A stretch of 59,580 bases of DNA, the filler included, from Limisphaerales bacterium (lineage in GTDB: Bacteria > Verrucomicrobiota > Verrucomicrobiia > Limisphaerales > SIBE01): NCBI GenBank assembly GCA_044225505.1. It is 3 parts of 3 records of this genome, joined end to end, with 100 filler letters (N's around TTAATTAATTAA, not from the genome) between each part and the next. Parts side by side here need not be neighbours in the genome. Positions count along the whole stretch, not along the records: positions 20,517 to 40,459 come from JBGAIN010000156.1; 2 more parts are not named here. One strand, 5' to 3'. The number at the start of each line of letters is the position of its first letter. Positions within the stretch are counted from its first letter, which is position 1. The notes beneath the pieces were generated by a model that was given only the letters and a program-made list of their open reading frames with translations, was not told where the DNA came from and made no database searches. A program made the position numbers and the translations under genes. Positions 14,114 to 37,118 of the stretch are shown one piece after another.

Positions 14114-14974
14114 ATGCCAACTTTAGAAATGACTCCAACCAAGACGTTCGCAATCGAACACCGCGGCTGCAAACTTGTCGGCGATGTCCGCGGTCAAGGC
14201 CGGCCGCTCGTTTGCATTCAAGGCACGGGTGTGCATGGAGATGGCTGGCTACCACAAGTGCGAGACCTGGCTAACCAGTACCAATGCCTCACCTTCGACA
14301 ACCGGGGTATGGCGCGCAGCGTGCCGGTCGGAAATCCCCTCTCGGTCGAGCTCATGGCGGAAGACGTTACGGCCCTAATGGACGCTCTGGGCTGGAATTC
14401 GGCCCATGTGGTCGGGCATTCGCTTGGCGGCTTGATCGCGCTGCAACTGGCGCTGAGCCATCGCCAGCGTGTGCAAAGTCTCGCACTCCTCTGCACCTTT
14501 GCCAACGGCGCGGACGCGACGCGCCTCTCGCTCTGGATGCTCTGGACAGGATTGCGCACGCGAGTGGGAACACGGCGCCAGCGACGCCATGCGTTCTTGA
14601 AACTGGTGACCGAACCGTCGGCTTACGAACGGATTGACAAGGACGCGCTGGCGCTCTCTTTAGCACCTCTCTTCGGTCATGACCTAGCGGATCATCCCTC
14701 CATCGAGATGCAGCAACTCGCGGCGATGCGGCGCTGCAATCTCACATCCCGCCTCGGCGAGTTAGACGGACTTCCGGTTTTGGTCGCCAGCGCGAGGCAC
14801 GATCGCATCGCGCGGCCTGAATATGGCCGCGCGTTGGCCTCGGGCATTCCAGGGGCCAGCTTCGTCGAACTTGCCAATGCCGCCCATGGCGTCCCAGTCC
14901 TGCAGCCGGAGACGATCAACACCTTGGTGCGGGACCATCTTAATCGTGCAACTCAACAACACTCAAATTTATGA
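14114..14974 (+). CDS. Alpha/beta-fold hydrolase
   Basis: FDNRGMARS, nucleophile GHSLGG, D and H triad candidates (HDRIA, AAHG); ATGA overlap with the next gene. Confidence 0.92.
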   Translation: MPTLEMTPTKTFAIEHRGCKLVGDVRGQGRPLVCIQGTGVHGDGWLPQVRDLANQYQCLTFDNRGMARSVPVGNPLSVELMAEDVTALMDALGWNSAHVVGHSLGGLIALQLALSHRQRVQSLALLCTFANGADATRLSLWMLWTGLRTRVGTRRQRRHAFLKLVTEPSAYERIDKDALALSLAPLFGHDLADHPSIEMQQLAAMRRCNLTSRLGELDGLPVLVASARHDRIARPEYGRALASGIPGASFVELANAAHGVPVLQPETINTLVRDHLNRATQQHSNL

Positions 14975-17076
14975 ACGCAGTTCGGATCGTTATTGTCGGT
15001 GGCGGGTTTGCCGGGGTAAAATGCGCCCAGACCTTGCGACGCGGGCTATCTCGCTCGCAAGCGGAGATCGTGCTCTTCAACGCGGAGAATCACCTCGTCT
15101 TCACGCCTTTGTTGGCCGATGTGATTGGCGCCTCGGTCAATCCCTTGGATGTGATCGTCCCCTTGCGGCAACTCCTGCAGGGCATCTCCTGCCGCACGGA
15201 AGAGATTGTGGGTTTTGACACCGCGGCTCGCGCGGTGGAATACCGGACGTCGGACGGGCACGCGTGTCGTCTGGTATATGATCATCTAGTGCTAGCTTGC
15301 GGCAACGTGGCGAACCTCCATGCGGTTCCGGGCATGGCCGACCATGCATTCGCCCTCAAGAACATCGGCGACGCGATCGCACTGCGCTCACATATCATGG
15401 AGCAGATGGAGAAAGCGGAAACTTGCGATGATCCAGTGCGACGGCAGTGGCACCTTTCGTTCGCCATCGTGGGTGCTGGCTTTAGTGGCGTGGAGGCAGC
15501 GGGGGAGATCAATGACCTGGTTCGTTCCAGCGCGTGTTACTTCCAGAACTTCAAGGCCAACGACGTGACCGTCTCGCTGATTCATTCGCGTGATCAAATC
15601 CTGCCAGAAATCAGTCCGGGATTGCGTGACTTCGCGCAACGACGCATGGAACAGGCCGGCGTCACGATGAAACTCAACGTGCGCGTGGAAGCCGCCACGG
15701 CGGAAGGCGTGGTGCTCGCGTCCGGCGAGTTTCTCCGCGCGGGAACGATTGTTTGCACCGTCGGAAGTTCCCCGTCACCGATCTTGGAACGGCTGCCGTG
15801 GGCGAAGGAGAAAGGGCGCATAAGAACGAACCCGGACATGACTGTCTGCGGGGTGGAGAACGTCTGGGCCACGGGGGATTGCGCGGAGATCGTGAATGCC
15901 CATGACGGCCGACCCTCGCCTCCGACAGGTCAGTTTGCCGAGCGTCAAGGCCGGCAGTGCGCGCGCAATGTGCTCCGAGCCCTTCGGGGCGAGGCCACGT
16001 TGCCGTTCCGTTTCAAACCGATCGGCCAGCTCTGCTCGATTGGCGGACATTCCGCGGTGGCGGAGTTCTCTGGAATCCAGATGTCCGGACTGATGGCCTG
16101 GCTTCTCTGGCGAGGAGTCTATCTTTTCAAGCTGCCCGCCTGGGTGCGTCGCTTGCAGGTTGGACTCGATTGGGCCTGGCTCTTCCTCTTTCCGCGGGAT
16201 CTGGCTCACTTGCGCGTTCGCCAGTCCGATCGCGTGTCGCGCGCCCACTACCAAAACGGGGACATCATCCTCCGGGAAGGAGAGACTAGTGCCAAGTTGT
16301 TCGTGGTGGAGTCGGGTGAAGCCGATCTGGTTCGCTTGGGGCGGCCAGGCCAGGCGGAACAGATTGTGGGGCGGCTCGGACCGAGGTCATTCTTTGGCGA
16401 GGAAGCGCTGTTGCCCGATCCAACGGTGCGATTTACCGTCCGGGCCACAACCGCCGTGAAGGTCTTGGTCCTGGGAAAAAGCGTCTTTGGGACACTTTCG
16501 GACACCCTCAAGCCGGTGCGAGAGGCGCTCGCCGAAACTCTCCATCGACGTTCCCTTGATCTGCAAAAGCGGCTCCCGGACGTCCAGGAGTTCCTAAAGA
16601 ACGTGCCTGTCCGCGAGTTGATGGAGAGCGTGCCAATGCCTCTACTCAAACCGAGCTCAACGCTCGACGAGGTCGGTCGCGCCTTCGCTCACCATCCGCA
16701 CGATTCGTTGTACGTATGTGGCGAAAACCACACGCTCGAAGGCCTAGTGACATTGACCGACTGGATGCAAGCTGTCTCCCGTGGCGCTGGGCCTGAAACA
16801 CTTGTCACCGAACTCATGGTGCGGCAACCGATCACCGTGCGGATTGACGATGATGGAACCACCGCCGCGGCAATTATTCGCGAGCACCGAGTAAAGAATG
16901 TTCCAGTGGTGCAAGAGACACTTGGCCATCGGCAACTTGTCGGTTGCGTCCGAACTCGTCGCCTCATGGCGCACGTGTTCAATAAAATGGACCGGTGCCG
17001 ACCGGGCTGCGGTTCACCGAAGTTCGCTTTGTCGGCACCCCAGGACGTCATGGAATCTCTTGGAACCCCTCGATGA
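14971..17076 (+). CDS. ndh: Type II NADH dehydrogenase-like FAD oxidoreductase fused to cNMP-binding and tandem CBS domains
   Basis: GGGFAG and VGAGFSGVEAAGE Rossmann motifs, WATGDCA, QFAERQG; then GDIILREGE..LFVVESGE..FFGEEAL (cNMP); then VRELM..LEGLVTLTD..VTELM (CBS pair). Confidence 0.88.
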   Translation: MNAVRIVIVGGGFAGVKCAQTLRRGLSRSQAEIVLFNAENHLVFTPLLADVIGASVNPLDVIVPLRQLLQGISCRTEEIVGFDTAARAVEYRTSDGHACRLVYDHLVLACGNVANLHAVPGMADHAFALKNIGDAIALRSHIMEQMEKAETCDDPVRRQWHLSFAIVGAGFSGVEAAGEINDLVRSSACYFQNFKANDVTVSLIHSRDQILPEISPGLRDFAQRRMEQAGVTMKLNVRVEAATAEGVVLASGEFLRAGTIVCTVGSSPSPILERLPWAKEKGRIRTNPDMTVCGVENVWATGDCAEIVNAHDGRPSPPTGQFAERQGRQCARNVLRALRGEATLPFRFKPIGQLCSIGGHSAVAEFSGIQMSGLMAWLLWRGVYLFKLPAWVRRLQVGLDWAWLFLFPRDLAHLRVRQSDRVSRAHYQNGDIILREGETSAKLFVVESGEADLVRLGRPGQAEQIVGRLGPRSFFGEEALLPDPTVRFTVRATTAVKVLVLGKSVFGTLSDTLKPVREALAETLHRRSLDLQKRLPDVQEFLKNVPVRELMESVPMPLLKPSSTLDEVGRAFAHHPHDSLYVCGENHTLEGLVTLTDWMQAVSRGAGPETLVTELMVRQPITVRIDDDGTTAAAIIREHRVKNVPVVQETLGHRQLVGCVRTRRLMAHVFNKMDRCRPGCGSPKFALSAPQDVMESLGTPR

Positions 17077-18453: not shown

Positions 18454-18781
18454 CCTATTCCAGAGACGCGAGTTCGTAGGGCGCGTCCCGCCGCGATTTG
18501 GGCCTGGGAAATCACTGGAGCGTGCGCCAAACTGATTGGAGAGGCAGATCGGATCTATAAATAAGGGTTAAGGCCTCTGGGTCGCCGAGAGTTGGCGGAC
18601 TTTGGGCGGCATTCACGCTTGCTCAATCAATGACGAATGTATTGGCAAGCGTGCTTGGCGGTCATCCCTGTCGCCTGGACCGTCTTCATGAGTTCTTCAC
18701 CTTGGGTGCGATACCGTCCCCGCAAAGCTGGCTGATCTGTTTTGCTGCCCTGAGCCAAGAGTGCAATCGCATGGAAACGCA

Positions 18782-20416
18782 ATGAAACCGATACGATCCA
18801 ATTCCAGTTTGGGCGGTGTTTCTGCGAGCACATTCGGGCAAGGGTGTTCTGAGAATCCGGTGCGACGCGCTGCCAGGATCCGTGAATGGATGGCAATCCT
18901 TGCCGGGACAGAGGGCGGGATTAGTCAAATTTGTGGCGCCTGCGTGCTGGCGTTCTGTTATGCGGTGCTTCCAGCGGCTCAGGCCGCGGATTTGGAGCCG
19001 AAGTCATGGACCACTGCAGATATTGGAAATCCCAGCACCGCGGGAGTTGCGTCAGTTTTGCCAAGCGAGATTGCCTTGTCGGCCGGAGGGGCTGGGATTG
19101 GCGGTAAAAGCGATCAGTTCCTTTTTAGCGCTGGCACAGCCGCGGAGGATTTCGATATCCGAGTCCGAGTATCGGTCCTAAAGAATACGGACCTGTGGGC
19201 CAAAGCCGGCTTGATGCTGCGAGCAGGCTGGGAAGCAGGTGCCCCATTCGTTGGCGTGTTTGCGACTCCTTCCGGCGCTGGATGCGTATTCCAGGTGCGC
19301 GAGACCATGGATTCGTCGGCCTCCTATCAAGGGAGTTTTCCGGCGAACCAACCGTTTGGGTGGTTGCGGTTACGGCGCGAGGGCGACGTCCTGACGGGAT
19401 ATGCCGGGTATGACGGACGCCAATGGACCATCCTCGGGAGTCGGACTATTGCATTTCAGTCGGGCAGCCTGCTCGGACTGGCAGCGACCAGCCATAGCAC
19501 CAATCAGACTCGGGCGGAGTTTCGGGAATTGGGGATTGCTTGGAACCCGATAGTGGCCCAAGTGCGCGGCCGGTTTGAACCTCTGGGGCCTTGCACCCGT
19601 CGGACGGCGCTCGTGATTTCCGAAATCATGTATCACCCACCCACCCGAGTTGACGGCCGCAATCTAGAGTTCATCGAAGTCTACAATTCACAACCCTACT
19701 ACGAGGACATCAGCGGCTGGAAGATCGCTGGAGAAGTGAACTTCACCTTTCCCGCGGGCACCTTAATTCCGGGGGGCGGGTTCCTGGTGGTCGCGGCCGC
19801 GCCGGAGGATATTCGCACGGTCTATGGCTTGGACAAGGTGCTCGGCCCATTCACAGGCAAATTGCCGAACGAAGGGGGTAAACTTCGCTTGCTTGGAGAT
19901 CGCGACGCGGTCCTGTTGGATATTGAATACAACGATAAGGCGCCTTGGCCCGAGTCGCCCGATGGCACCGGACACTCCTTGGTCTTGGCACGTCCGTCGT
20001 ATGGAGAGGGCGATGCCAAGGCCTGGGCAGCGAGCCGGATCAAAGGAGGATCGCCCGGATTTCCAGAAGCGACGGAACTCACCTCGTGGGCCGACGTGCG
20101 TATCAACGAATGCCAATGGCCAAGCCAGGGTGCAGCCGGGTTTGTGGAATTGTTCAATGCTAGCGGCGTGGAGGCGGATCTGAGCGGCCTGCGGCTTGGC
20201 CTTTCGCCGGAACCGACGAACTTCCGCATCCCGGACGGGACGACGTTAAAGAGCGGCGGTCTCTTGCACTTTTCTTGGGCTCAACTCGGGTTGGATCCGG
20301 ACAACACTGGGGAGACTGTCTATTTGGAGAGCCCGGACCAAACGCGATTTATCGATGTGGTATCGTTTGGGCCGCAAGTCCCAGGCACTTCAGCGGGACG
20401 TTGGCCCAATGGCGGC
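18782..20416 (+). CDS. Secreted lamin-tail-domain (LTD, CotH-associated type) protein, truncated by contig end
   Basis: DIGNP..G, WAKAGLMLR (DUF1349-like), VISEIMYHP..LEFIEVYN, VRINE..FVELFN..DLSG. Runs into the N-gap; start uncertain. Confidence 0.82.
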
Positions 20417-20516
20417 NNNNNNNNNNNNNNNNNNNNNNNNNNNNNNNNNNNNNNNNNNNNTTAATTAATTAANNNNNNNNNNNNNNNNNNNNNNNNNNNN
20501 NNNNNNNNNNNNNNNN
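20417..20516. other. Artificial contig linker (N44-TTAATTAATTAA-N44)
   Basis: Six-frame stop linker between N runs, identical to the one at 40460. Confidence 0.97.
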
Positions 20517-20646
20517 TTCGCGCGCCCGCCGCGTTCCTCGCTCGTTCTCCCGACCTGTCGGGACGGGTCTGCGCCTCGCTCGCGCCTTGCGGGCGCGCAA
20601 AAACCCTCGCCGCGAAAGTGCAAGGACTTAGCGGTCACCACACTAG
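20517..20646 (-). mobile_element. Partial MITE copy, inverted relative to the 22173 copy and cut by the contig end
   Basis: Near-identical reverse complement of about 22173-22302, ending AAGGACTTAGCGGTCACCACACTAG. Confidence 0.9.
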
Positions 20647-20793
20647 GGGCTGACGACGACGAGGTCCGGGGGCGGATGGACGGAGACCCGTTTGCCTCAA
20701 ACATGATCCCGTAACAAACCGCAGAAATGAAGTTGTTCGAAATCGCCGATTTGAACTAGGCTCTCTCACCAGTTTTGACTTGGAACAGGTCTC

Positions 20794-22176
20794 GTGCGCA
20801 TCGCTCTCAAATCCTTTGTTTGGCTCGCGGTCATAGCCGCCGTTGGCTCTTTCTTGCAGGCCCAGGTTTCGCCGTTACCCACTTCGACCACGGCATTGAT
20901 CGGACGATTCGGCCGCGGCCCGGTCGATCTCCCGGCCTTGGTGCAAGCGGCCGGATTTGAATCTCAGTTCGGATCGGAGCATCCGTCTTCCTGGCCAGCC
21001 GAGTTGCAAGCCCGGCAGTTCTTCGCGAGTGGCGGACTTGATCTCTACGTGGTGCGCGTCGCTGAGGCGCCACCGCTCTCGTCGGGGTTGGTTGGTGACG
21101 CGGGGAACCTGACTGGATTGCACGCTTTAGAACCGGTCGCGGAGGTTCGTCTGCTGCTGGCGCCGGAGTTGAGTCTCCTTCCCGCGGCGGACTTCGGCCA
21201 GGTAATGAGCCAATTCGAGTCTTTCCTAAAACCGCGCCGCATGTTCCTGATTCTCGATCCACCGCCCAATCTCCCCGATGCGGCGGCCGCGATCGATTGG
21301 GTAAAAGCCAATGTTCCCGAGGAGGCGTCGTGGTGCGCTCTTTACTTCCCGTATCTGAGCGTTTTGCTCAACGGGACGCGAGTGACGATCCCACCTTCGG
21401 GAACCATGGCCGCGACGTATGCGAAGGTTGATTCGTCTTTAGGCATCTGGAAAAGCCCGGCCGGAACGAGTCTGCCGTTACGAGTTGAGGCGCTGCAGCC
21501 GAGCGTCAACCAGACCGACGGGGACAACTTGAACGTCAACCAGATTTCAGCGATTCGAGAATTCCCGAACCTTGGAATTGTGCCTTGGGGAGCGAGAACT
21601 TTGGATCGAGTGAACGTTGAGAACCGCTTTATCTCCGTGGTTCGATTGCGTCAATGGATCGCTGCATCGGTGGAGCGCTTTTTGACCTTTGCCGCGGTCA
21701 AGGAAAATGATGCTGTGCTCCGGGCGGAAATCACGCAAGGAGCGCAAGATTTCCTCCAGTCGCTGTTCCTGTCAGGCGCGCTTGTGGGTAGCACCCCGAG
21801 AGAGGCTTACTTTGTTCGGTGCGATACGAGCACGACCAGTGGGGCGGATGTGGCGGAGCATCGCGTCAATGTCCTTTTGGGAGTGGCCACGCTGCGCCCG
21901 GCCGAGTTTGATTTGATCTCGCTCAGTGCCGCCACGCGGGGTGGGGCGCCGCCTTCCCCGGTGTTGCATCAGCGCATCTCGAATGGGAACTTGAGCCTGT
22001 GGTATCTGATTGCCGCTGGCTACGACTACAGCCTAGAAGAAGCCGATTCATTGAGTGGGGTGAATTGGCGAGGCATCGGCACACCCGTGCGCGGCAATGG
22101 CACTTGGGGCACAGCAAACCTGGCGATTGGAAATGGCACGGCCTTCTATCGCTTGCGGATTGAGCCGGGCCGCTAG
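20794..22176 (+). CDS. Contractile phage/eCIS tail-sheath homolog with N-terminal signal peptide and Verrucomicrobia-type FYRL C-terminal domain
   Basis: TSTTALIG..RGP, FF..GG..LYVVRV, ILDPP, ALYFP, PPSG..A..D..GIWKSPAG, AIREFP..G..WGARTL, EAYFVRCD..TT, GVATLRPAEF. Leader MRIALKSFVWLAVIAAVGSFLQA; tail YSLEEADSL...W...AFYRLR. Confidence 0.9.
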   Translation: MRIALKSFVWLAVIAAVGSFLQAQVSPLPTSTTALIGRFGRGPVDLPALVQAAGFESQFGSEHPSSWPAELQARQFFASGGLDLYVVRVAEAPPLSSGLVGDAGNLTGLHALEPVAEVRLLLAPELSLLPAADFGQVMSQFESFLKPRRMFLILDPPPNLPDAAAAIDWVKANVPEEASWCALYFPYLSVLLNGTRVTIPPSGTMAATYAKVDSSLGIWKSPAGTSLPLRVEALQPSVNQTDGDNLNVNQISAIREFPNLGIVPWGARTLDRVNVENRFISVVRLRQWIAASVERFLTFAAVKENDAVLRAEITQGAQDFLQSLFLSGALVGSTPREAYFVRCDTSTTSGADVAEHRVNVLLGVATLRPAEFDLISLSAATRGGAPPSPVLHQRISNGNLSLWYLIAAGYDYSLEEADSLSGVNWRGIGTPVRGNGTWGTANLAIGNGTAFYRLRIEPGR

Positions 22177-22454
22177 TGTGGTGACCGCTAAGTCCTTGCA
22201 CTTTCGCGGCGAGGGTTTTTGCGCGCCCGCAAGGCGCGAGCGAGGCGCAGACCCGTGCCGACAGGTCGGGATAACGAGCGAGGAACGCGGCGGGCGCGCG
22301 AAAGAACCGCCGCCCAAAGGGTTGCGCTGAAAATGGGTCCTGGCTGCGTTGCTCCTCGGTCAGAGAGCGCGGCGGCAATCCTGCGTCGTCGCGCCTCGCC
22401 AGGACCCATTTTGAGCGCAACGAAAGTATAAGGACTTAGCGGTCACCACACTAG
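22173..22454. mobile_element. MITE of about 280 bp with 34-bp terminal inverted repeats including terminal CTAG
   Basis: CTAGTGTGGTGACCGCTAAGTCCTTGCACTTTCG ... CGAAAGTATAAGGACTTAGCGGTCACCACACTAG (32/34). Non-coding, with internal hairpins. Confidence 0.9.
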
Positions 22455-23144
22455 GACGGGCTGGACGAGCGCACATCTGTGGGGAGCACCAGCCGCAAGA
22501 CTCGGGATTTTGTAACTCATTCAACTGCTGTAGTTTCAGTCGGTGAAATCGCCTTTTGGTGACAATTGTCACCTGCGGCTGATGAATTTGGGGCCGGGCC
22601 GTTCCCAAAACCGCTCGGAGCCGGAGATTTGTCGCATACCTTGTCCGCAAATTGCGGACAACCCACGCAAGTCTCACTCTTGCAACGTTGTTTTGGTCAT
22701 CGCCGACCGCCCTGGCGCAAAATTTGGACTGTCCGAGCAACGAGTTAAGAGGAACTTAGTCCTTGCGCGCCACCGCCACGCCGTCCGCTGCCGGAACGCC
22801 AGCGACTTCATGGTGGCGCGACGGAATTCAAGAGCAATTTGCTCCGGGCATGTGCGACATATCGAGCATCTAGCCAGTCAGTCTCATGTCATTGAGTTAA
22901 CAGATGAAACATCAATGGAAAACGCGAATTGCGGCGAGCGCACAGTCGGCGCCCAAGCCCAACGCCTGCTGCGTCTCCACCGCCGCGTCTTCGACTATGA
23001 TTCTCCGTCCTCTTGGCAGCTCGGCGTCTCAGCGTGAAATCCATTTCTCAGGGCAGCAACGCCGAGCGACGGCAAAACAGCGGCGAGGGGACTGCCCCTG
23101 GACGCGCTTATGCACCTGAGCCGGCTTTGGCACTCGGCTATCTA

Positions 23145-23924
23145 CTAATTCAAGGGTTGAGCTGGCGCTGACCCGGCCGGCCAAAACTCGCGCACGGTTC
23201 GCGTCCACTCGTCGGCCATGATTTGGTGGCCGGAGTAGGTCGGGTGGATGCCATCCCAAATCCAGTATTCAGCCGGTGCGGTCCGGCACGCGTCGTCGAA
23301 AGCTCGCTGAAAGCGAACCAAAGCCGCATGATATTTCTGCGCGAGTTTGGCCACGATCTCCTGCCGGTCCTTCATCCCAGCGCTCCAATGCTCCCAATCG
23401 GCTTTCTTGCTCCCCACCGGAAGGCTGAAAGGCTCGCCCAAAATCAAACGGAGATTGGGATTTATCGCTCGTGCGTCTGAAAGTAGCTGGTCATAAACGC
23501 GCTCGTATTGATCGAGTGGCATCTTAGCGCTGTGATCATTTACCCCGACCAGGATGCAGAGGACATCCGGCTTAAGGTCCAGAGTGTCCTTCTGCCAACG
23601 GGCGGCCAAGTCGGACACTTTATTGCCACTGATCCCGCGGTTGAGAAACGCGAGTTGTAATTCTGGGAAGGACGCTCCGAACTTTGCCGCAATAATGAAC
23701 ACATACCCATGGCCGAGAATATGGTTCGGGTCGTCGTTTCGGCCACGATTGCCGTCTGTGATCGAGTCGCCTTGAAACAGAATCCGGGCGCTGGGCTGGA
23801 AGATGGCCGATGGCTTCATGGAAGGGGCGGGTTCCCCTACCGCCGACATCGTGAGAACACTGATCAACAGTAATTGAAGGTGGCTGCCCGTGCTTTTGCT
23901 CAAGGGAGCGATGAATGAGTCCAT
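23145..23924 (-). CDS. SGNH/GDSL family esterase/lipase
   Basis: FQGDSITDG, NRGISG, LVGVND, DGIHP blocks; start uncertain. Confidence 0.93.
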   Translation of the reverse strand: MDSFIAPLSKSTGSHLQLLLISVLTMSAVGEPAPSMKPSAIFQPSARILFQGDSITDGNRGRNDDPNHILGHGYVFIIAAKFGASFPELQLAFLNRGISGNKVSDLAARWQKDTLDLKPDVLCILVGVNDHSAKMPLDQYERVYDQLLSDARAINPNLRLILGEPFSLPVGSKKADWEHWSAGMKDRQEIVAKLAQKYHAALVRFQRAFDDACRTAPAEYWIWDGIHPTYSGHQIMADEWTRTVREFWPAGSAPAQPLN

Positions 23925-24110
23925 GAGGGCGCGATCGTGGCACAGACCCAGCGACATTGCTGGAAGATTCTTTTTGCCTTTGCCGCTAAGAACTGTTGGT
24001 CGGACTCGAATGGCCCATTCTCCGGGATCTCCATGGGAGGTTTATCCAGGATGAACTGGATCCGCGCTGGCCGTCGGCTAAATACGAATTTAGCGGCTGA
24101 GCTAGCGCCA

Positions 24111-25706
24111 TCAATGGGCGCCAACCGCATCGAGAGGTGGCTGGATAGGCAACTCGTAGCAGACCGCTTCGCGGTCGTTGCGGACCAGCAAATAGCGGCC
24201 TGCCAGGGTGGGATAATTCCAGGTTTTGCTGCTCAATGCAGGCCAGCGCGCGACTTCTTTGAACTGGTCGGGGTTGGCCTCGACCAGCGCGACTGCACCG
24301 GGCTCACTCTGAACCAGGATGAAGTCTCCGGCTAGCAGGGTTTGTCCGGAGCCATAGCGCCCATCTTTCCAGTGGCGTTTTCCGGTGGCGATTTCGATGC
24401 AGGCGAGCAACCCGTCATCCAAGCCGTAGATGTAACCCTGGCGATTGGCGGCACTATTAAACTGGGTTTTCATCATTTGGTTACGCCAGAGCGCGTGGAC
24501 CGTCAGGGTGGTGGGAGAGACCGCTTTAATCTCCAGCAACGCGCAGCCCACGCCATAACCTGCAGAAATGAAGACATGATTCTCGTCCAGCACGATCGGC
24601 TGTGATGCTTTGGGAAACCCGTCGCTACCCCAGGGATAGTTGAGCCTCTCTTTGCCGGTCGCCGGATCGTGAACGGTGAAACTCGCGGCGTTGACAGAAA
24701 GGATAACATCTTGGCCAGCCACGCGGGCCAAGATGGGCGAGGCGTAGCTGGCTTTGTCACTTCCGGAGGTCCAAAGCGGTTTTCCAGTCTCGCGCTCGTA
24801 TGCAATCAGCGTGGGTCCATTGGTCAATCCTCCAGTGACCAGGACGGTATTACCGTACACGAGTGGCGAACAGCTGACACCCCACACCAGGTTGGGCAGT
24901 CGGTGCTCAGCTAAGACGTCCCGTGACCAGACCGTTTCCCCAGAGGCGGCGTTGAGGCAATCCAGAAGGCCTGTAGCGCCGTAACTGTAAACGTTCGATG
25001 CCGTTACCGTGGGAGTGGCCCGCGGACCTTCTCCAGCTTGCCATTGGAAGAATCGGACTTGGTTGGTGTGAGCCCAAATCAGCTCACCGGAGAGTAGATC
25101 GTAGCAGGTCACTAATTCGATTTCGCCGCGTTGCTCTTGAGTATAAGCCCGTCCCTTGGCGACAGCGAATGAAGACCAGCCACTCCCAATAGGCTGACGC
25201 CAGAGCTCTTTCGGGGGCGACGCAGACCAATCCGTCACGAGTTTGACCCTTCCCGCGCGACCGTCGCGAGACTCGCCAAAAAACTGGGGCACGTCCGGGA
25301 TATCGGATGTGGTCAACGTGGCAGGAGGCACGTGTTCCGGGGCTAACTTCGTACGCAATTCAGGTGCTGCCTCCCGTGGAGATGAGTGTTTCCAAACAAG
25401 GCGAGGCAGACCGGAACCATCGATTGTCCCATCGATACGAAGTGTCCGATACACGCCAAACCCAGCGAGTGCCAGCAAGAGCACAGTGGCAAGGCGGGTC
25501 TTCCAGCTGAATCGGCTGAGGAGCAGAAGCCAAAGCAGCATTAGCAGGAGACTCAAAAGAGCGACTCCAAACGCTACCCAGACCTTGAACATGAGCTCCA
25601 ATTCCGGGCGGCTCCAGGTGACGACCAGGGCAATGATCGCAAGGAACACCACGCTTCCGAGAAACCAGAGCCGATGACTTTTGCGGACTTCGGAGGAATG
25701 GCTCAT
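24111..25706 (-). CDS. Membrane-anchored PQQ-binding-like (BamB-type) beta-propeller protein
   Basis: Three N-terminal TMs; QFFG..RDG, LWRQPIGSGWSS, GPRATP, SYASP, KTWNYP. Confidence 0.88.
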   Translation of the reverse strand: MSHSSEVRKSHRLWFLGSVVFLAIIALVVTWSRPELELMFKVWVAFGVALLSLLLMLLWLLLLSRFSWKTRLATVLLLALAGFGVYRTLRIDGTIDGSGLPRLVWKHSSPREAAPELRTKLAPEHVPPATLTTSDIPDVPQFFGESRDGRAGRVKLVTDWSASPPKELWRQPIGSGWSSFAVAKGRAYTQEQRGEIELVTCYDLLSGELIWAHTNQVRFFQWQAGEGPRATPTVTASNVYSYGATGLLDCLNAASGETVWSRDVLAEHRLPNLVWGVSCSPLVYGNTVLVTGGLTNGPTLIAYERETGKPLWTSGSDKASYASPILARVAGQDVILSVNAASFTVHDPATGKERLNYPWGSDGFPKASQPIVLDENHVFISAGYGVGCALLEIKAVSPTTLTVHALWRNQMMKTQFNSAANRQGYIYGLDDGLLACIEIATGKRHWKDGRYGSGQTLLAGDFILVQSEPGAVALVEANPDQFKEVARWPALSSKTWNYPTLAGRYLLVRNDREAVCYELPIQPPLDAVGAH

Positions 25707-25975
25707 AGAGTCAACGGACCAACGGTTCGACGCTTTGGAGCGCTAGACGACCCACAACAGGGTAGCCATCGACAGCGGTCCGTGGCGTTGCAGGATTGGT
25801 ACGTCGTTCAGAGCCAGCGCTTGAAAAAGTTACAACCATACCAACCCGCCTGCAACTGGAAGGCTGACCGAACGGATCTGGCCGTCAAGGTAATCCTGGA
25901 GGGTCGGACGAGCGCCAAGTCGGGCAGTTCGGTGCCAAGTCCGCTTGACGGACGCGGAGGGATTTCGAAAAGAGT

Positions 25976-26003
25976 GAGGAACCCCAATCGATTGGGGTTC
26001 CTC
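25976..26003 (-). terminator. Intrinsic terminator downstream of hcp
   Basis: Perfect 28-bp palindrome GAGGAACCCCAATCGATTGGGGTTCCTC followed by CTCTTTTC on the minus strand. Confidence 0.7.
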
Positions 26004-26035
26004 TGTCGTGCCGTCGAGATTTATTGCAGTGCGCC

Positions 26036-27691
26036 TCAGGCAGCCGGGGCGAGCATGGCTTTCAGGTCTTCGTCCGGTGTCCGAATCGGCATCAGATTGA
26101 ACTTATCGACGAGAACTTTAAGAACGTTTGGAGTGACGAATGCCGGCAATGTCGGTCCGAGGCGGATGTTGCGAATGCCGAGGTGCAAAAGGGTCAGCAA
26201 GATCGCCACGGCCTTCTGTTCGTACCAGGAGAGAACGAGACTAAGCGGGAGATCGTTAACGCCCACGCCGAACGCTTTGGAAAGTGCCACCGCGATCTGA
26301 ATGGCCGAGTAGGCATCGTTGCACTGCCCGATATCGAGGAGTCGAGGCAGTCCTGCGACGGTCCCGAAATCGAGTTTGTTAAAGCGATACTTGCCGCAGG
26401 CCAGCGTTAGAATGACGCAATCCTTGGGTATCCGCTCGGCGAGATCGGTGTAGTAATCACGACCGGTACGTGCTCCGTCGCAGCCGCCCACCAGGAAAAA
26501 GCGTTTGATGCTTCCGTCTTTGACGGCGGCGATGACTTTATCGGCGACGCTGAGAACCGCATTATGCCCAAAGCCGACGAGGATGGTTTTGTCCGGGCCA
26601 TCTTCACTAAACCCCGGTTCGGCTAGCGCCGCGTCGATCAAGGGTTTGAAATTGCGATCGGAAATGTGCTGCATCCCCGGCCACCGGACCAGGCCGGCGG
26701 TGAAAATGCGTCGAGCGTAACACTCGGCCGGTTTCTGCAGACAGTTGGTTGTCATGAGAATAGACCCTGGGAACTTGGCAAATTCGTCTTTTTGATCTTG
26801 CCATGCGCCGCCGTAATTGCCGGCCAAGTGTTTGTACTTCTTGAGCGCTGGGTATCCATGAGCGGGCAGCATTTCGCCGTGGGTGTAGATGTTAATGCCG
26901 AGCCCGTCGGTCTGTTTTAGGAGTTCTTCAAGATCTTTAAGATCGTGTCCGGAGACCAGGATGGCCTTCCCTTTGAGCGGTTCCACGCGAACTGGAGTAG
27001 GGACTGGATGCCCGTAAGCGCCCGTATGCGCGCCGTCCAGCAACGCCATCACTTGGAGATTCACATTGCCGCATTCCAAGCAAAGCTGGAAGAGTTGATC
27101 AACTGTCGGGGCCTCTTCGGCCAGATATGCTAAAGCCTTGCTGAAAAAGGCGTAAGCCACCTCGCTTTCGTGTCCGAGAACCGTGGCGTGGTGCGCATAG
27201 GCGGCCGTACCCTTGACTCCGTAGAGAAGCAATTCCTGCAGTCCGGACAGATCCGATCCGAGTTCCTGCCGGCGGAACGGAAAGGCGATCAACTCAGCTT
27301 GCCGGAGCAGCCCGGAAGGTTCAGTTGCCGGTCGCCACGTTGCCGGACCCCGCGCAGGCAATGGGGGAGATTTCTGCGATTTTTGCGCGGCGGCCTCGTA
27401 AGCTTTGCGCGCCCGGTCGCGAACCGAGCTGGCGTCGTGGACCATTTTCGCGATGGTCGCTTGATCGAAGTTCACATTCGTCACCGTGGTAAAGAGCGCT
27501 TCAACGATGAAGCGATCCACCAAAGGATCAATGGCTCCGAGCGTTCGCGCGGCGTGATTCCATTGGGCAATCCCTTTTGCCGCATGAACCAGGAGGTCCT
27601 GCAGCTTGGCCGACTCTTCATCTTTGCCGCAGACGGAAAAGTCCGTGCAACCGGTTCCTTTGGAGGTTTGTTCACACTGGTAGCAGAACAT
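26036..27691 (-). CDS. hcp: Hydroxylamine reductase / hybrid cluster protein
   Basis: MFCYQCEQT..GC...VCGK, LFTTVTNVNFD, YTHGEMLPAHGYP, GGCDG, GQCNDAYSA, LSWYEQKAV. Confidence 0.97.
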   Translation of the reverse strand: MFCYQCEQTSKGTGCTDFSVCGKDEESAKLQDLLVHAAKGIAQWNHAARTLGAIDPLVDRFIVEALFTTVTNVNFDQATIAKMVHDASSVRDRARKAYEAAAQKSQKSPPLPARGPATWRPATEPSGLLRQAELIAFPFRRQELGSDLSGLQELLLYGVKGTAAYAHHATVLGHESEVAYAFFSKALAYLAEEAPTVDQLFQLCLECGNVNLQVMALLDGAHTGAYGHPVPTPVRVEPLKGKAILVSGHDLKDLEELLKQTDGLGINIYTHGEMLPAHGYPALKKYKHLAGNYGGAWQDQKDEFAKFPGSILMTTNCLQKPAECYARRIFTAGLVRWPGMQHISDRNFKPLIDAALAEPGFSEDGPDKTILVGFGHNAVLSVADKVIAAVKDGSIKRFFLVGGCDGARTGRDYYTDLAERIPKDCVILTLACGKYRFNKLDFGTVAGLPRLLDIGQCNDAYSAIQIAVALSKAFGVGVNDLPLSLVLSWYEQKAVAILLTLLHLGIRNIRLGPTLPAFVTPNVLKVLVDKFNLMPIRTPDEDLKAMLAPAA

Positions 27692-27781
27692 GTTCGGTAT
27701 CTTGTTTCAGGTTTACTCACGGAGCTCTCGTCATGAGTGCCAGCCGCGCGTTTTGTTTATGCGCAAACCCAGGTCGAAACT

Positions 27782-27795
27782 TTGATGTGAATCAA
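27782..27795. promoter_or_regulatory. FNR/Dnr/HcpR-type (CRP family) binding site upstream of hcp
   Basis: TTGATGTGAATCAA is a perfect TTGAT-N4-ATCAA, about 90 bp upstream of the hcp start. Confidence 0.8.
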
Positions 27796-28001
27796 GAAAC
27801 GCGGCGTTACGGAAGGAGATCGCACGTCCCTCAGCGGAAGACAGACCATCGAAGCGGAGCGGAATGAGCTTCGCGGAGAATAAGAAAAGCGGAGGGACGA
27901 TCGCAACGCGAGCTCGGCGAGTCGGCGGGGAGGGGGAGGTCGCAGGACGCGGCCGGCCTACGACTCAGCGCGGCCGCGTTTGAAGCAGATTTGCAGCGGG
28001 C

Positions 28002-28814
28002 TTACTTCACGTTCCAAAACTCCGGATCGGATGCGCGAGTGGCTTTAGAAACATAGCTCTGGGCCGGGTCGACTCGGTAGTGATTGGTCTCCACGCTCTC
28101 GGCGACTTCATTGAACTGGCTGAGTACTTTCATCTCATCCGCGGTGGCTCCCTTCCAGGCGGTTTCGCCTTCGGTGAGGCGTTGGTCAAGTTCGCCATAG
28201 TTTTCCATTGAGGAAATGATGAGGTAGATAGGTAGTCGTTCGCCTGCCAGGACTTCATAAACCCGGTATTGTGCCTTGGGTGCGCCACGCTTGATCATGG
28301 CGGCGTAGGTTTTGGACATTTCTTCGAACTTCGGTTCAAAACCCGGACGGATGCGAAAGATGCTAATTTCGAAATACCGTGCTTTCGAAAGATCTGGGAA
28401 GGTGCCCACGCTCAAGTCTGAAACCGCGCGCGCGCGCATCACGCGACTGCTGGTGATGTATTCGGCGTCGGCCAAAGCCAAACGATCCATCTCCGCCGAG
28501 AGGACAGGGTCTTTGGCATCGCGTTTGATCGTGTCATCGATTGCTTTAAAGGAATCACTTGGTTCTAGATACCAAACTTCACTGGGTCCGGTCATTGAGA
28601 CCAGCGCCAAGTAATGATTGGGATGGTTCGCCTTCTCCAGAGCTGCCGGGTAGCCCGCCTCGAGTTTGCTGTGTTCAGCGGCTTTGCCCACTTTCAATTG
28701 TTCCCGATAAATGGTCAGAACCTTCGGTTGTGTTTTGGGGAGATCATCCGCGGTGGCACGCCCGAGTGTGCCAGCAACGACGAGCAAGACTAGAGATAAG
28801 GTGAGTCGTTTCAT
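28002..28814 (-). CDS. Secreted hypothetical protein, two NIPSNAP-like (dimeric alpha/beta barrel) halves
   Basis: Signal peptide; paired motifs IYREQLKVGKAAEH and ISIFRIRPGFEPKFEE. Confidence 0.65.
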   Translation of the reverse strand: MKRLTLSLVLLVVAGTLGRATADDLPKTQPKVLTIYREQLKVGKAAEHSKLEAGYPAALEKANHPNHYLALVSMTGPSEVWYLEPSDSFKAIDDTIKRDAKDPVLSAEMDRLALADAEYITSSRVMRARAVSDLSVGTFPDLSKARYFEISIFRIRPGFEPKFEEMSKTYAAMIKRGAPKAQYRVYEVLAGERLPIYLIISSMENYGELDQRLTEGETAWKGATADEMKVLSQFNEVAESVETNHYRVDPAQSYVSKATRASDPEFWNVK

Positions 28815-29317
28815 AAGAATGAGAGGTTACGAATGTGTTGGTTGGTTGGTTTTTGAATTCGGCATGCCCGTGAACGAGATTCTATTCCCGTGCCCGAAAT
28901 CGAACTACGCCTAAGTGAACTGTGGCTGAAGACTCTTTATGACCAGGGCTCTGGTTACCGTCAATGGCGAAATGGATAAGGCCGCTGCGCCTGCGCCGGA
29001 GCGTGAAGCGTTCGGGATGGAAGGAGTTACAGATAGCCGGAGCCGCCGTTGCACTTAAGGCTCCGGCCGCTCCTCTGTCTGACGACCTGGCTCCGTTCGT
29101 CGCCAGGGCGGACAGGGAATCCAGAACGGAGGCAGAAGATATGGAAATCTTGCCGCGGCGCTCAGCGTGATCGATGCAAGTTGCTGGCACCAAGGATTTC
29201 GCGAGGTCCCTCGGTGAGGACGATTCCTGCAATCACCCCGTTCTGAACCGTTCTCGAAACTCCATTCGCGGGGCGCAGCCTGTCGCGATTCCAGGCAAGC
29301 TGGGCTATTCTCTCCGC

Positions 29318-30649
29318 ATGTCTCAGATTCTCCTTGAGCTAGTAGTGATTGGGTTGCTGCTGATGGCCAACGGGGTCTTTTCCATGGCAGAGATCGCGGT
29401 GGTGTCGTCGCGAAAAGCCCGCTTGCGGCAGAGCGCAGAGGCTGGCGATTGGCGAGCAGCTGCGGCATTGGAGTTGGCCGAATCCCCGAACAACTTTCTG
29501 GCAACGGTTCAGATCGGGATCACGTTGGTGGGAGTGATTGCGGCCGCGTTCAGCGGCGCCACCCTCGCCGAGAAATTGTCTTCGCCCATGGAACAGATTG
29601 CCTGGCTCGCTCCGTACGCAGAGAAGGTGAGCTTTGTTCTCGTCGTTTGCGCGTTGACCTTTTTTACATTGGTGATCGGAGAGCTTGTTCCTAAACGCCT
29701 GGGGATGGGAAATCCCGAGGGCATCGCTCGGACGCTCGCCGCACCGATGCGTCGACTGGCCCGGGTAGCATCGCCGCTCGTCGCCCTGTTGAGCTGGTCA
29801 ACCGACGCTCTGTTGAAAATGTTCCGTATTCAAACGTCCGATCCGACAGCGGTCACGGATGAGGAAGTGAAGTTGTTGGTCAAAGAAGGGATGCGCGCCG
29901 GAATTTTCCATCCTAGTGAACCTGCCATGGTCGAGAGTGTGATGGCTCTTGACGCTGTCCCGGTCAAAGATTTGATGACCCCGCGCGCTCGGATCATCTG
30001 GGTCAATGTGCACGATTCGCACGACGCGATTTGGCACAAGATCGTGGTCAGCGGGCATTCTATCTTTCCTGTTTATGAGGGCAACCGAGACCGAGTTCTT
30101 GGAACGATTTCGGTCAAAGCGATTTACGCCAACCTGGCGGCCAACACACCGGTGCGGGTCCGGGACTTGACCACCCCGGCGCTGGTGGTCCCGGATTCTC
30201 AGCCTGCGAGCGCACTCTTGGAGAAGTTCAAACAGAGCGGCAAACACGTCGCATTGGTGGCCGACGAATTCGGAGCGATTACCGGGTTGGTTTCGCTGCA
30301 TGATGTCATGGAAGCCATCCTCGGTGAGATTCCTTCGTTTGGCGAACGCTCCAAGCCGCGGGCGGTGCGAAAGGACGACGGTTCCTGGTTGATCGATGGA
30401 ATGCTGGATTCCGAGGAAGTCGAACGAGTTGTTCCCAACTTGGCATTGCATCCGTTATCCCTGCGGGATTACCAGACGTTTGCCGGTTTCGTGATTAAAC
30501 ATTTGGGACGCGTGCCTTCGGAAGGAGAAAGCTTCGATTGGGGCTGCTATACGGTCGAGATCATCGATATGGATGGGCACCGCGTTGACAAGGTCCTGGT
30601 CGTTCCGCGAAAGCCTGCTCCCGAGTCAACCTCGTTACGGGGCGCGTAG
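29318..30649 (+). CDS. Hemolysin/CorC family (CNNM DUF21-CBS-CorC_HlyC) protein
   Basis: NGVFSMAEIAVVSSRK, FLATVQIGITL, GELVPKR, MTPR, DEFGAITGLVSLHD, DMDGHRVDKV. Confidence 0.93.
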   Translation: MSQILLELVVIGLLLMANGVFSMAEIAVVSSRKARLRQSAEAGDWRAAAALELAESPNNFLATVQIGITLVGVIAAAFSGATLAEKLSSPMEQIAWLAPYAEKVSFVLVVCALTFFTLVIGELVPKRLGMGNPEGIARTLAAPMRRLARVASPLVALLSWSTDALLKMFRIQTSDPTAVTDEEVKLLVKEGMRAGIFHPSEPAMVESVMALDAVPVKDLMTPRARIIWVNVHDSHDAIWHKIVVSGHSIFPVYEGNRDRVLGTISVKAIYANLAANTPVRVRDLTTPALVVPDSQPASALLEKFKQSGKHVALVADEFGAITGLVSLHDVMEAILGEIPSFGERSKPRAVRKDDGSWLIDGMLDSEEVERVVPNLALHPLSLRDYQTFAGFVIKHLGRVPSEGESFDWGCYTVEIIDMDGHRVDKVLVVPRKPAPESTSLRGA

Positions 30650-30719
30650 ATGGTGATCAGCCCTTGACCGGACGGAAGGGACTTCCTACGGTTAGTGCAA
30701 CCCATTGCTGTAATGACGT

Positions 30720-31688: not shown

Positions 31689-31815
31689 CCGACAATCTGT
31701 AGTCCATGGAGTGGGCTGGCCAATCCGCCGGTCCAAGTCCCACCTTGACTGGCAAAAGCGCTGAGTGCCCCTTGATTTTCCCACCAACGGGCACCAGATT
31801 TCTAGAAAGAGGCGT

Positions 31816-32043
31816 ATGAGTTCGAAGGAGCAAAACAAAAAGTCGGTTCCGGTCGGAAGTCCAGTAAAAGACCCGGACGACTGGACGACAGGAGACGAAC
31901 GAATGACCGCGGCGCAGGTGTCTTACCTAAAGACATTGAGCACCGAAGCGCAGGAGGATTTCGACGAGACTCTGACCAAGGCGGAAGCGTCCAGGCGCAT
32001 CGAAGAGCTGCAGAAGAAAACCGGACGCGGGCAGGGAAGCTGA
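31816..32043 (+). CDS. DUF3072 family small protein
   Basis: KDPDDWTTGDE.MT.AQ.SYLKTL...A..LTKAEAS..I. Confidence 0.88.
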   Translation: MSSKEQNKKSVPVGSPVKDPDDWTTGDERMTAAQVSYLKTLSTEAQEDFDETLTKAEASRRIEELQKKTGRGQGS

Positions 32044-32117
32044 TAAATAATGCTTCGCGTGTCGAGCTGATCGGCAAGCGAGATCTTTCCCGGCAAGCAC
32101 ACACCAGGAAACAAAAG

Positions 32118-32150
32118 AGAGGCTGGCGGACATAAAGTTCGCCAGCCTCT
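32118..32150. terminator. Bidirectional intrinsic terminator
   Basis: AGAGGCTGGCG-loop-CGCCAGCCTCT flanked by A- and T-rich tracts, between convergent genes. Confidence 0.7.
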
Positions 32151-32224
32151 TGTTTTAAGGGCAGGTCCGGGCATTCCAGCCTGCCACGCATGAGGCGCAC
32201 AGGCTGGCCATGCCAGGGAGGTCT

Positions 32225-33771: not shown

Positions 33772-33899
33772 AGAGTTTGTTTTTGGTCCCCGAACTGTTC
33801 CTTCATACCAAGGTTCCAGCGAGTTGGGAAGAGCCGAAAAACAATTCCGTAACCTATCGCCGGCCCGCGAGTCAGAATAAGTACAGTCTGGAGGATCTT

Positions 33900-36981: not shown

Positions 36982-37118
36982 CATTGGAATAGACTGCTGG
37001 GCAAGCATAGATCGCCGCCAGACCGGCTGACGGTAGGCGAGTTCTGAGCCCACCCTTTAGGCATGATGCCAACCCCGAACCACTTGAGATTGTCGCGCCA
37101 TATCCTTTCGGAGATGCC

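Follow-up and report, generated by a model that had tools for sequence, protein, structure and literature searches.

We report a verrucomicrobial gene whose product is probably a domesticated CIS sheath protein that resides outside the cytoplasm, perhaps as a static, self-associating scaffold. The firmest part of this explanation is that the protein is exported and domesticated, which we consider highly probable from its sequence and that of its relatives. We also favour the cell surface over the periplasm as its location, with less confidence, and propose self-association only tentatively. To our knowledge, sheath proteins are known only as parts of contractile machines that assemble in the cytoplasm (phage tails, tailocins, eCIS and T6SS). 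Full-text literature searches found no published description of a protein of this kind. The initial annotation of the DNA had read the gene as a sheath that has taken on a secreted or surface role rather than as a part of a CIS, and this reading is supported by the conserved architecture of the protein, the solitary position of its gene and a tail domain that it shares with many other proteins.

Results

An intact gene next to an assembly break

The window, that is the whole stretch of 59,580 nucleotides that was analysed, consists of three contigs (positions 1-20416, 20517-40459 and 40560-59580) with N spacers between them. The gene is an intact ORF of 460 codons with a GTG start and a TAG stop at 22174-22176 (Table 1). 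An in-frame TGA at 20776-20778 agrees with the upstream stop reported in the initial annotation, and the stop-to-stop frame runs from 20779. Between the 5' end of the second contig and the gene lie 277 nt; the DNA further upstream is unassembled in this draft genome, which is 95% complete and comprises 342 contigs. The genome contains no second sheath homologue besides the 460-aa ORF. A scan for promoters and terminators around the gene returned nothing fitting the gene above shuffled expectation.

The stop codon is overlapped by a MITE-like repeat, which has high depth in run X1 and gave 61 blastn matches on 46 contigs, 11 of them less than 300 nt from a contig end. The contig itself begins with a 134-nt inverted repeat that is 98% complementary to positions 22169-22302. 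This partial copy of the MITE-like repeat probably made the assembly break here. In a 1372-nt contig from an independent run that covers the gene, two positions differ, both of them third codon positions. Three RNA-library contigs map to the gene (X17, 20822-20995; X20, 21843-22029; X18, 22037-22199) and only hint at its transcription, without giving a measure of its level, as the runs were chosen with the sheath gene, DNA carry-over is possible and gaps in cover are uninformative.

Table 1. Features of the sheath-like gene and its flanks (window positions)
Feature	Position	Strand	Details and basis
Whole gene, predicted precursor of an exported sheath-like protein	20794..22176	+	460 aa; ORF list and translation
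Sec-type signal-peptide-like leader	20794..20862	+	residues 1-23; located where canonical sheaths have their PGVY arm at the N-terminus
Contractile sheath core	20863..21933	+	residues 24-380; two-domain, Pvc2/Afp2-sized; profile and structure matches
C-terminal strand PAEFDLISLSA	21898..21933	+	residues 369-380; putative handshake-arm equivalent; alignment
Pro-rich linker TRGGAPPSPV	21934..21963	+	residues 381-390; coil in AF2 model
FN3-like C-terminal tail domain	21964..22173	+	residues 391-460; AF2 tail model
MITE-like dispersed repeat	22173..22455	.	about 285 nt, 39-nt terminal inverted repeats; overlaps the TAG stop
Partial inverted copy of the MITE-like repeat	20517..20650	.	at contig start, 143 nt ahead of the GTG start

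The protein has a two-domain contractile sheath core

Sheath homology, as claimed in the initial annotation, is well beyond chance. The 460-aa protein matched PHROG 23 ('tail sheath') at 7e-36 and CIS sheaths in the PDB down to 8e-35, and the profile of its family matched the Streptomyces coelicolor CIS sheath at 2.5e-55, with T4 gp18 as a distant match (E 1e-10). Besides PHROG 23, the sheath superfamily was tested with PF04984 (Phage_sheath_1) and PF17482 (Phage_sheath_1C). This Pfam check, which the initial annotation had proposed, gave a divided answer: sheath models scored above their gathering cut-offs in homologues from three loci (L005, L007 and L011) but below them for the protein itself (15.2 bits vs 31.4 and 14.9 vs 26.9). 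Apart from the sheath models, the protein had no Pfam match at E <= 1, and NCBIfam searches at E <= 0.1 returned no family for it or for three unannotated neighbours.

The AF2 model of the protein (pLDDT 89.2, pTM 0.87) has the two-domain sheath fold and no third surface domain. Its superposition with the CIS sheath of S. coelicolor (9gts_2A) has Z 35.3 and an rmsd of 2.4 Å over 326 residues at 28% identity, and TM scores are 0.84-0.86 when normalised to the target. The structural core comprises model residues 29-368, which correspond to residues 26-339 of Pvc2, 26-339 of Afp2 and 23-363 of the R2 pyocin sheath.

The cytoplasmic CIS sheath of S. coelicolor (9gts, 9gtp, 8bl4, 8bky) is the best match in both structure and profile, and shares domains I and II and the DPPP and CD motifs with our protein. 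In contrast to it, the S. coelicolor sheath carries an N-terminal arm plus an additional domain (about 150 aa) and lacks a leader and a C-terminal tail; its gene belongs to a full CIS locus, and it assembles on a tube in the cytoplasm. The minimal eCIS sheaths Pvc2 and Afp2 (6j0b, 6rao, 9qgl) have a sheath module as large as ours (about 355 aa) and likewise made of two domains; the core superposition with Pvc2 has Z 29.8, and the C-terminal strand can be aligned up to the end of the Pvc2 chain. According to passages of two papers, the N- and C-termini of Pvc2/Afp2 both take part in beta-strand 'handshakes' and an attachment helix binds the tube (PMC12546770, PMC8894135). Our protein differs in that a leader replaces the N-terminal arm, a linker and a tail follow the C-terminal strand, and no tube gene accompanies it.

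A signal-peptide-like leader replaces the N-terminal arm

The ORF begins with the leader MRIALKSFVWLAVIAAVGSFLQA, followed by Q. It has basic residues (R2 and K6), a hydrophobic core and L-Q-A ahead of Q24, the predicted start of the mature chain, which lies five residues ahead of the structural core; residues 2-18 form a low-confidence helix in the AF2 model. Using a maximal Kyte-Doolittle value over 10 residues of at least 1.7 as the criterion, we found a hydrophobic leader in all 39 family members in which the anchor motif was located (39/39), compared with one of 13 canonical relatives. One further protein, P0126, has a leader as judged by eye, and P0010, a 435-aa protein from a 2-kb contig, is the sole family member that starts at the core. 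Sequence identity within the family is 19% in the leader vs 54-59% in the core, where it is even across all four segments and not focused on any single patch. Of the 31 members with the anchor found, 28 have a small-x-small site ahead of the core; in the alignment these sites are of the A-x-[AG] type, with Q or E directly before the core, while the other three have no clear site. We call the leader signal-peptide-like on the grounds of rule-based features and conservation in the family. The ORF also has an in-frame TTG at codon 21, from which a leaderless protein could in principle be made.

The motif PG[VI][YFC] of the canonical arm occurs within the first 40 residues of one of 41 family members but of 167 of 219 canonical relatives, in line with the initial annotation, which had described a Sec-type leader in place of this arm. 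A PGVY-type N-terminal donor arm is missing from 40 of the 41 members. P0126 and P0270, found on two contigs, have the leader ahead of an intact PGVYV arm, from which we conclude that the leader was added to the protein and did not arise by decay of the arm. In this subtype the N-terminal arm is kept behind the leader and the C-terminal strand is altered.

The sheath core is followed by an FN3-like tail found on many other proteins

The C-terminal strand aligns to the chain ends of canonical sheaths (to residue 350 of 355 in Pvc2 and 572 of 574 in 9ezm). Residues 369-380 lie outside the superposed core of the assembled structures, and by analogy with the sheaths treated in passages of PMC12546770 they may serve as an arm. 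The strand is no longer terminal, because the linker and the FN3-like domain follow it; identity within the family is 31% over residues 382-398.

The tail domain of about 70 aa ends the protein with AFYRLRIEPGR, and both it and the Pro linker had been recognised in the initial annotation. Modelled alone with AF2, the tail is a six-strand beta-sandwich with a pLDDT of 92.4. The nearest folds in VIA-align were generic FN3/Ig-like domains (Z 6-7.1); a T9SS CTD was not among the matches listed, but the tail may still be related to one. Foldseek found no match to the tail model in the PDB at E <= 0.001. In the ESM Atlas, residues 382-460 gave best scores of 0.87-0.88 with Verrucomicrobiota clusters of 65-67 aa, which is under the 0.9 level and a lead only. 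The tail domain matched nothing in Pfam or NCBIfam. In Bacteroidota, T9SS CTDs are small Ig-like C-terminal beta-sandwiches that act as sorting signals on many unrelated Sec-exported proteins, as described in the abstracts of PMC4804311 and PMC4560394. The likeness of the verrucomicrobial tail, from a different phylum, to these CTDs is an analogy only, and the T9SS CTD models PF18962/TIGR04183 and PF13585/TIGR04131 had no match in the protein (Pfam E <= 1, NCBIfam E <= 0.1).

Searching the genome with the tail domain, we found it at the end of 217 other ORFs, no more than 10 residues from the stop codon; this position was seen in 18/18 first-round matches and 217/254 final matches. The tail of the sheath ORF matched the genome-derived HMM with an iE of 3e-8 (rank 96 of 217), its domain ending two residues before the stop. 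The domain lies right at the C-terminus, and its consensus ends in [FY][FY]R[LVI]. Alignment A2 sets the tail of our protein beside those of 20 carriers. The 20 carriers that we sampled have mostly LTD, CotH, Ig, FG-GAP, Laminin_G_3, Calx-beta, PKD, TSP3 or M10 domains. The large adhesin-like carriers (LTD, CotH, Ig, Calx-beta) are typical surface proteins. By a crude rule, which the sheath ORF also passes, 124 of 193 carriers (64%) have signal-peptide-like starts, compared with 53-71 of 193 control ORFs (27-37%). The initial annotation had remarked that such tails are common on secreted Verrucomicrobia proteins. By analogy with T9SS CTDs, the domain may be a sorting or anchoring module.

The family is old and its genes are solitary

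Among the best 150 of 14,982 matches in 1.84 billion representatives, the family forms 13 full-length clusters at 50% identity, followed by a gap in E-values from 1e-117 to 1e-83. In a set of 30 proteins, E-values were <= 1e-94 and query coverage was 82-100%; a gap separates them from canonical sheaths, which begin at 1.9e-54 with about 62% coverage. A branch with an SH-like support of 100 has all 26 family rows on the same side. The family has so far been seen only in Verrucomicrobiota-labelled records, and its leader, sheath and tail architecture is kept throughout; the intact three-part ORF is present in 10 species-representative genomes, on contigs of up to 278 kb. The family alignment has 49 invariant columns, three of them within the tail, and the end branches (0.13-0.94) are comparable in length with those of canonical sheaths. 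Among members with available DNA, protein identity is 36-51%, so that synonymous sites are probably saturated. In viral contigs of IMG/VR, 45 pattern matches included nine relatives, all of the canonical type and none (0/9) extending past residue 381. From these sequence comparisons we regard the family as small, old and confined to a single clade.

No CIS family was detected among the 12 ORFs around the sheath gene or among the 71 of 107 ORFs scanned at nine homologous loci. The family gene is solitary in all loci examined: across 13 family loci no neighbour is conserved, and none of the 10 loci scanned with Pfam has a tube gene near the family gene. A protein of about 355 aa is the only shared neighbour, at two independent loci (L004 and L010, L115 being the same DNA as L010); we rejected it as a general partner.

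According to the initial annotation, no tube, baseplate, spike or ATPase gene was recognisable "on this contig". The window is three joined contigs and not one, and the absence therefore had to be tested across the genome, where it held. Six hallmark families had no match in the 95%-complete genome: those of the tube, Hcp and P2-type tube (PF06841, PF05638 and PF04985) and those of the baseplate and sheath initiator (gp25-like and Baseplate_J) and of the cap (Pvc16_N; PF04965, PF04865 and PF14065), the Pvc16_N search being one without a working control. As a positive control, PF06841 adjoins the sheath gene in 4/4 verrucomicrobial genomes with canonical sheaths. A further genome that has the family gene only (G327, 98% complete) also has no PF06841 tube. 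Another carrier, G231, has a canonical sheath and tube locus as well, on another contig, and cross-talk of the family protein with a CIS may thus occur in some carriers. Nothing that the initial annotation had named as counting against its reading was found: the architecture is recurrent and not unique, and no complete CIS locus surrounds the family genes at the loci examined.

Discussion

We propose that the leader would take the precursor through Sec and that signal peptidase I would cleave behind A-x-A, so that the mature protein would begin at Gln24. Sorting to the outer face of the envelope, or retention there, would then fall to the tail domain, as is presumably the case in the 217 other carriers. 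There is no tube, baseplate or N-terminal arm, and the sheath core would therefore be unable to build a two-arm mesh or to contract. It might instead be a static structural element or scaffold, associating with itself through the strand-exchange surface it has kept, namely the C-terminal strand and its acceptor sheet. Polysheaths of T4 gp18 and VipA/VipB tubules of the T6SS are sheath polymers without a tube and set a precedent for a tube-less polymer, but they are cytoplasmic and need both terminal arms. The initial annotation had put forward a polysheath, an S-layer-like polymer, an adhesin scaffold or a decoy as possible roles. A canonical two-arm polysheath lattice is made less likely by the lost N-terminal arm, which also weakens the case for any sheath-like polymer.

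A more specific version of the scaffold, which we think unlikely, makes the mature protein a subunit of an extracellular polymer built by one-armed, head-to-tail strand exchange, giving a filament or ring array that the FN3-like tail would dock to the outer membrane. The C-terminal strand would enter the acceptor sheet of the next subunit, by analogy with donor-strand exchange in chaperone-usher pili, and the P0126/P0270 subtype would be a mirror-image solution or an evolutionary intermediate.

The protein might also be exported and form no polymer at all, working as a monomeric binding module on the surface: for example a decoy or receptor for parts of phages, tailocins or eCIS, or an adhesin for glycans or proteins. 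With the donor arm missing from nearly all members, half of the lattice contacts are gone, the tail is a generic FN3-like module and the sampled carriers of this tail are mostly of binding or adhesin types. However, the sequence of the C-terminal strand has been kept, the even conservation of the core singles out no patch, and a gene context without any conserved neighbour gives no ligand or partner; on balance we hold a purely monomeric role to be somewhat unlikely. It is quite improbable, in our judgement, that the protein stays in the periplasm or is tethered to the inner membrane by an uncleaved leader, with the tail as a spacer only. Such a location would suit the three leaders without a clear small-x-small site, and the surface location of the tail carriers is itself predicted only, but the other 28 leaders show an A-x-[AG]-type site and then Q or E, and large adhesin-like, surface-type proteins carry the tail at their very end.

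A cytoplasmic sheath of a cryptic or divergent CIS, with an N-terminus that is no signal peptide and partners encoded elsewhere, is disfavoured and very improbable. The gene does lie close to a contig edge in an incomplete draft, and G231 does carry a canonical CIS, but the six hallmark families are without a match here and the tube is missing from the nearly complete G327. Moreover, a tube gene adjoins every canonical verrucomicrobial sheath of the control and none of the family loci examined, the leader of P0126 and P0270 precedes a normal N-terminal arm, and the tail is common to extracellular-type proteins. Least credible of all is that the gene is what remains of a prophage or CIS in decay, or a chimera that arose by chance or in assembly and is under relaxed selection, as might be suspected from the MITE-like repeats that flank the gene and from the assembly break. 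The recurrence of the intact three-part ORF in 10 species-representative genomes and 13 clusters, its invariant columns and its canonical-like end branches speak against this, as does the independent contig with its two third-position differences, and this reading is refuted as far as sequence data allow.

If the domesticated, exported sheath is confirmed, it would be the first case of a sheath fold moved outside the cytoplasm, and would mean that individual components of contractile machines can be co-opted for roles in the envelope. The protein would offer a compact, possibly self-assembling extracellular scaffold. As a well-folded and easily recognised cargo, it would also be suited to studying the pathway that handles the FN3-like tail and thereby the products of 217 other ORFs of this bacterium.

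The sheath core and its family

The sheath identity proposed in the initial annotation was borne out by profile, sequence and structure comparisons. PHROG 23 ('tail sheath') matched residues 25-371 at 7e-36, and phmmer against the PDB retrieved sheaths of contractile injection systems (CIS) at 8e-35 to 1e-11 (H. borinquense, S. coelicolor, PVC, AFP, AlgoCIS and Anabaena), T4 gp18 reaching 2e-3 at best. The Pfam sheath models scored under their gathering cut-offs for this protein and over them for three homologues. With an AF2 model built from the family alignment (pLDDT 89.2, pTM 0.87), the S. coelicolor CIS sheath ranked first in both Foldseek and VIA-align (Z 35.3, rmsd 2.4 Å, 326 residues; target-normalised TM 0.84-0.86). 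The sheath module is a minimal two-domain form, of the size seen in Pvc2 or Afp2. No second sheath homologue occurs in the source genome, a 9.04-Mb draft of 342 contigs (completeness 95.2%, contamination 4.7%).

Homologues with the same leader, sheath and tail exist. A homologous-protein search yielded 30 family proteins (P0002-P0031; E <= 1e-94, identity 43-98%, coverage 82-100%), canonical sheaths following at 1.9e-54 with coverage of about 62%. When 1.84 billion representatives clustered at 50% identity were searched without filters, 14,982 matched at E <= 1e-3. The best 150 of these, which were classified, comprised 13 clusters of full-length family members (456-478 aa, with matches reaching at least profile position 459), five fragments reaching the tail, two other short pieces and 130 canonical sheaths, the last at E 1e-83 or weaker and ending at or before position 392, except for one sheath-ATPase fusion extending to position 419. 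In a FastTree phylogeny of 26 family and 56 canonical rows (82 in all), from which a fill filter had removed the leader and tail columns, 26/26 family rows grouped on the same side of a branch whose SH-like support was 100, and their end-branch lengths were within the canonical range. Among the best 80 of 583 relatives in a one-genome-per-species scan were 10 full-length loci (L003-L012), nine with record titles naming Chthoniobacteraceae/Chthoniobacterales, Verrucomicrobiia, Verrucomicrobia subdivision 3, Verrucomicrobiota or Opitutales, and one titled only 'bacterium'. Of 401 evenly sampled Verrucomicrobiota genomes, three (the source genome, G327 and G231) had the full-length form and nine others had canonical sheaths only; on IMG/VR viral contigs, 0/9 relatives extended beyond residue 381. 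Six canonical sheath relatives (P0150, P0193, P0203, P0251, P0255 and P0114) carry a C-terminal AAA+ ATPase-like fusion, recorded as PF00004 for P0114 and, in the others, judged visually on the VSKYIGETEKNL...FFDEADALFG stretch.

Sheath arms and leader

Canonical sheath subunits are interlaced through their N- and C-termini by beta-strand 'handshakes', and domain I provides an attachment helix that holds the tube (PMC12546770, PMC8894135). The superposable core of our model (residues 29-368) corresponds to Pvc2 26-339, Afp2 26-339 and pyocin 23-363 in the assembled structures, and the first 17-25 residues of the canonical chains occupy the place of the leader (residues 1-23). The canonical N-arm is indeed absent, as initially annotated: PG[VI][YFC] occurs within the first 40 residues of 167/219 canonical relatives but only 1/41 family members. 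The predicted cut between A23 and Q24 would leave five residues ahead of the core. The C-terminal strand (PAEFDLISLSA, residues 369-380) is kept, since it aligns with the ends of canonical chains (Pvc2 to 350/355, 9ezm to 572/574); whereas it ends the chain in those sheaths, here a linker and a further domain come after it.

We aligned 29 family proteins, after setting aside P0002 as a near-duplicate (98%) and P0026 as truncated. In 28 of them, one or two basic residues precede a hydrophobic stretch and then usually A-x-[AG] plus Q; the one exception, P0010 (435 aa, called from a contig of 2 kb), begins at the core. With 12 further cluster representatives added, a hydrophobic leader was present in 39/39 members in which the anchor motif was found, compared with 1/13 canonical relatives, and a small-x-small site lies at most 12 residues from the core in 28/31 family members. 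Family identity is 19% for the leader and 31% for the linker, compared with 54-59% for the four quarters of the core and 42% for the tail, and low leader identity beside a conserved core is the pattern expected for a signal peptide. Two 97% identical proteins, P0126 and P0270 (from a 92-kb and a 775-kb contig), provide the sharpest argument: they have a leader followed by an intact PGVYV...GLSTS arm, so the leader is an addition and not a degenerate arm. In this subtype it is the C-terminal strand region that is changed, lacking the RPAEF motif; it may represent an intermediate stage or another way of being one-armed. From the leader features and family conservation, we infer that the sheath-like protein is exported.

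A tail domain shared with many other proteins

From the final ~80 columns of the family alignment an HMM was built and searched against the complete set of 77,787 stop-to-stop ORFs in the source genome. The first round returned 18 ORFs at iE <= 1e-3, and in 18/18 the match ended no more than 10 residues before the stop codon; three iterations gave 254 matches at the same threshold, 217 of them terminal by this measure (consensus ...L.W...pG..Y.lE.S.dL..W......rFYRv..P). Most of 20 sampled carriers had LTD, CotH, NHL, DUF5122, Ig, FG-GAP, Laminin_G_3, Calx-beta, PKD, TSP3 or M10 peptidase domains, and in none of the 20 did a best-scoring Pfam stretch fall within the last 70 residues. A crude signal-peptide rule was passed by 124/193 complete carriers versus 53-71/193 random long ORFs. 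The AF2 model of the tail alone is a six-strand sandwich (pLDDT 92.4) that matches generic FN3/Ig folds (Z 6-7.1). The 217 ORFs ending in this uncatalogued tail are a candidate for a very large sorting or anchoring regulon. LTD proteins occur among the carriers, and a protein with two Lamin Tail Domains also lies at the 3' end of C254 (Table).

Genomic context

Table. Features of the window.
Feature	Position	Strand	Remarks
Contig C254	1-20416		
NADH dehydrogenase fusion	14971-17076	+	701 aa
Lamin Tail Domain protein	18761-20464	+	567 aa; weak DUF1349 match
Join	20417-20516		N runs around TTAATTAATTAA stop cassette
Contig C259	20517-40459		bears the sheath-like gene, 277 nt from its 5' end
Second repeat copy	20517-20650		inverted, partial; first 134 nt of C259
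In-frame TGA	20776-20778		upstream stop, as initially annotated
Sheath-like ORF	20794-22176	+	460 codons, GTG start, TAG stop
MITE-like dispersed repeat	22173-22455		~285 nt; 39-nt terminal inverted repeats, ends begin CTAG; this copy begins at the sheath-like gene's TAG stop
Join	40460-40559		N runs around TTAATTAATTAA stop cassette
Contig C262	40560-59580		

The initial annotation reported no CIS genes on 'this contig'. The 59,580-base window consists of three concatenated contigs, so gene neighbourhood across the joins is meaningless and the absence had to be checked genome-wide, where it held: tube PF06841, Hcp PF05638, P2-type tube PF04985, gp25-like PF04965, Baseplate_J PF04865 and, in a search without a working control, Pvc16_N PF14065 were all unmatched in the source genome. 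The tube search works in Verrucomicrobiota, since PF06841 lay directly beside the sheath in 4/4 genomes with canonical sheaths. G327 (98% complete, family gene only) had no PF06841; in G231 the tube adjoins a canonical sheath on contig C19 and the family gene is on C12.

On C259, the region downstream of the sheath-like gene contains an unannotated 164-aa ORF and encodes a GDSL lipase, a BamB/PQQ-like propeller and a hybrid-cluster protein. At nine homologous loci no CIS family was found among the 71/107 called ORFs that lie closest to the family gene; the genes were ordinary and unrelated (MIOX, SSF symporter, DUF1501/PSD1, LTD-CotH giant protein, DsbH, arginine biosynthesis, AdoHcy hydrolase, BlaI, NDH2, Rrf2, porin). 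All-against-all blastp of the ORFs of 13 loci found nothing conserved except the family gene. An unannotated protein of ~355 aa lies downstream of it at two independent loci (L004:8660-9724 and L010:8171-9244, both minus strand) and is absent from the others.

The MITE-like repeat gave 61 blastn matches on 46 contigs (26 of at least 121 nt; 11 no farther than 300 nt from the end of a contig), and its read depth in sequencing run X1 was 120-375 versus 6.7 for the sheath-like gene; it probably causes assembly breaks. Its ends suggest a CTAG target site, which is typical of IS5-group elements. On C254, a type II NADH dehydrogenase (Pyr_redox_2 plus NDH2_C) is joined to cyclic-nucleotide-binding and CBS domains, an unusual regulatory fusion. 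Nine runs from three studies contain at least half of the sampled words, the labelled ones being activated-sludge or bioreactor metagenomes. Three short RNA-library contigs fall inside the sheath-like gene, a weak hint of transcription.

A putative role outside the cytoplasm

Because tube, baseplate and N-arm are lacking, the sheath-like protein cannot be a contractile device. Our preferred reading is that it acts as a static structural element or scaffold, with putative self-association via the remaining strand-exchange surface; this is the weakest step, and its main rival is a role as a monomer, in binding or as a decoy. Full-text literature searches on tail sheaths and contractile injection returned no paper, judged from titles and abstracts, on an exported or solitary sheath. 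Architecture and conservation, the isolated position of the gene and the kinds of proteins that share the tail all point towards a sheath that acquired a signal peptide plus a surface tail and was then retained for a role outside the cytoplasm.
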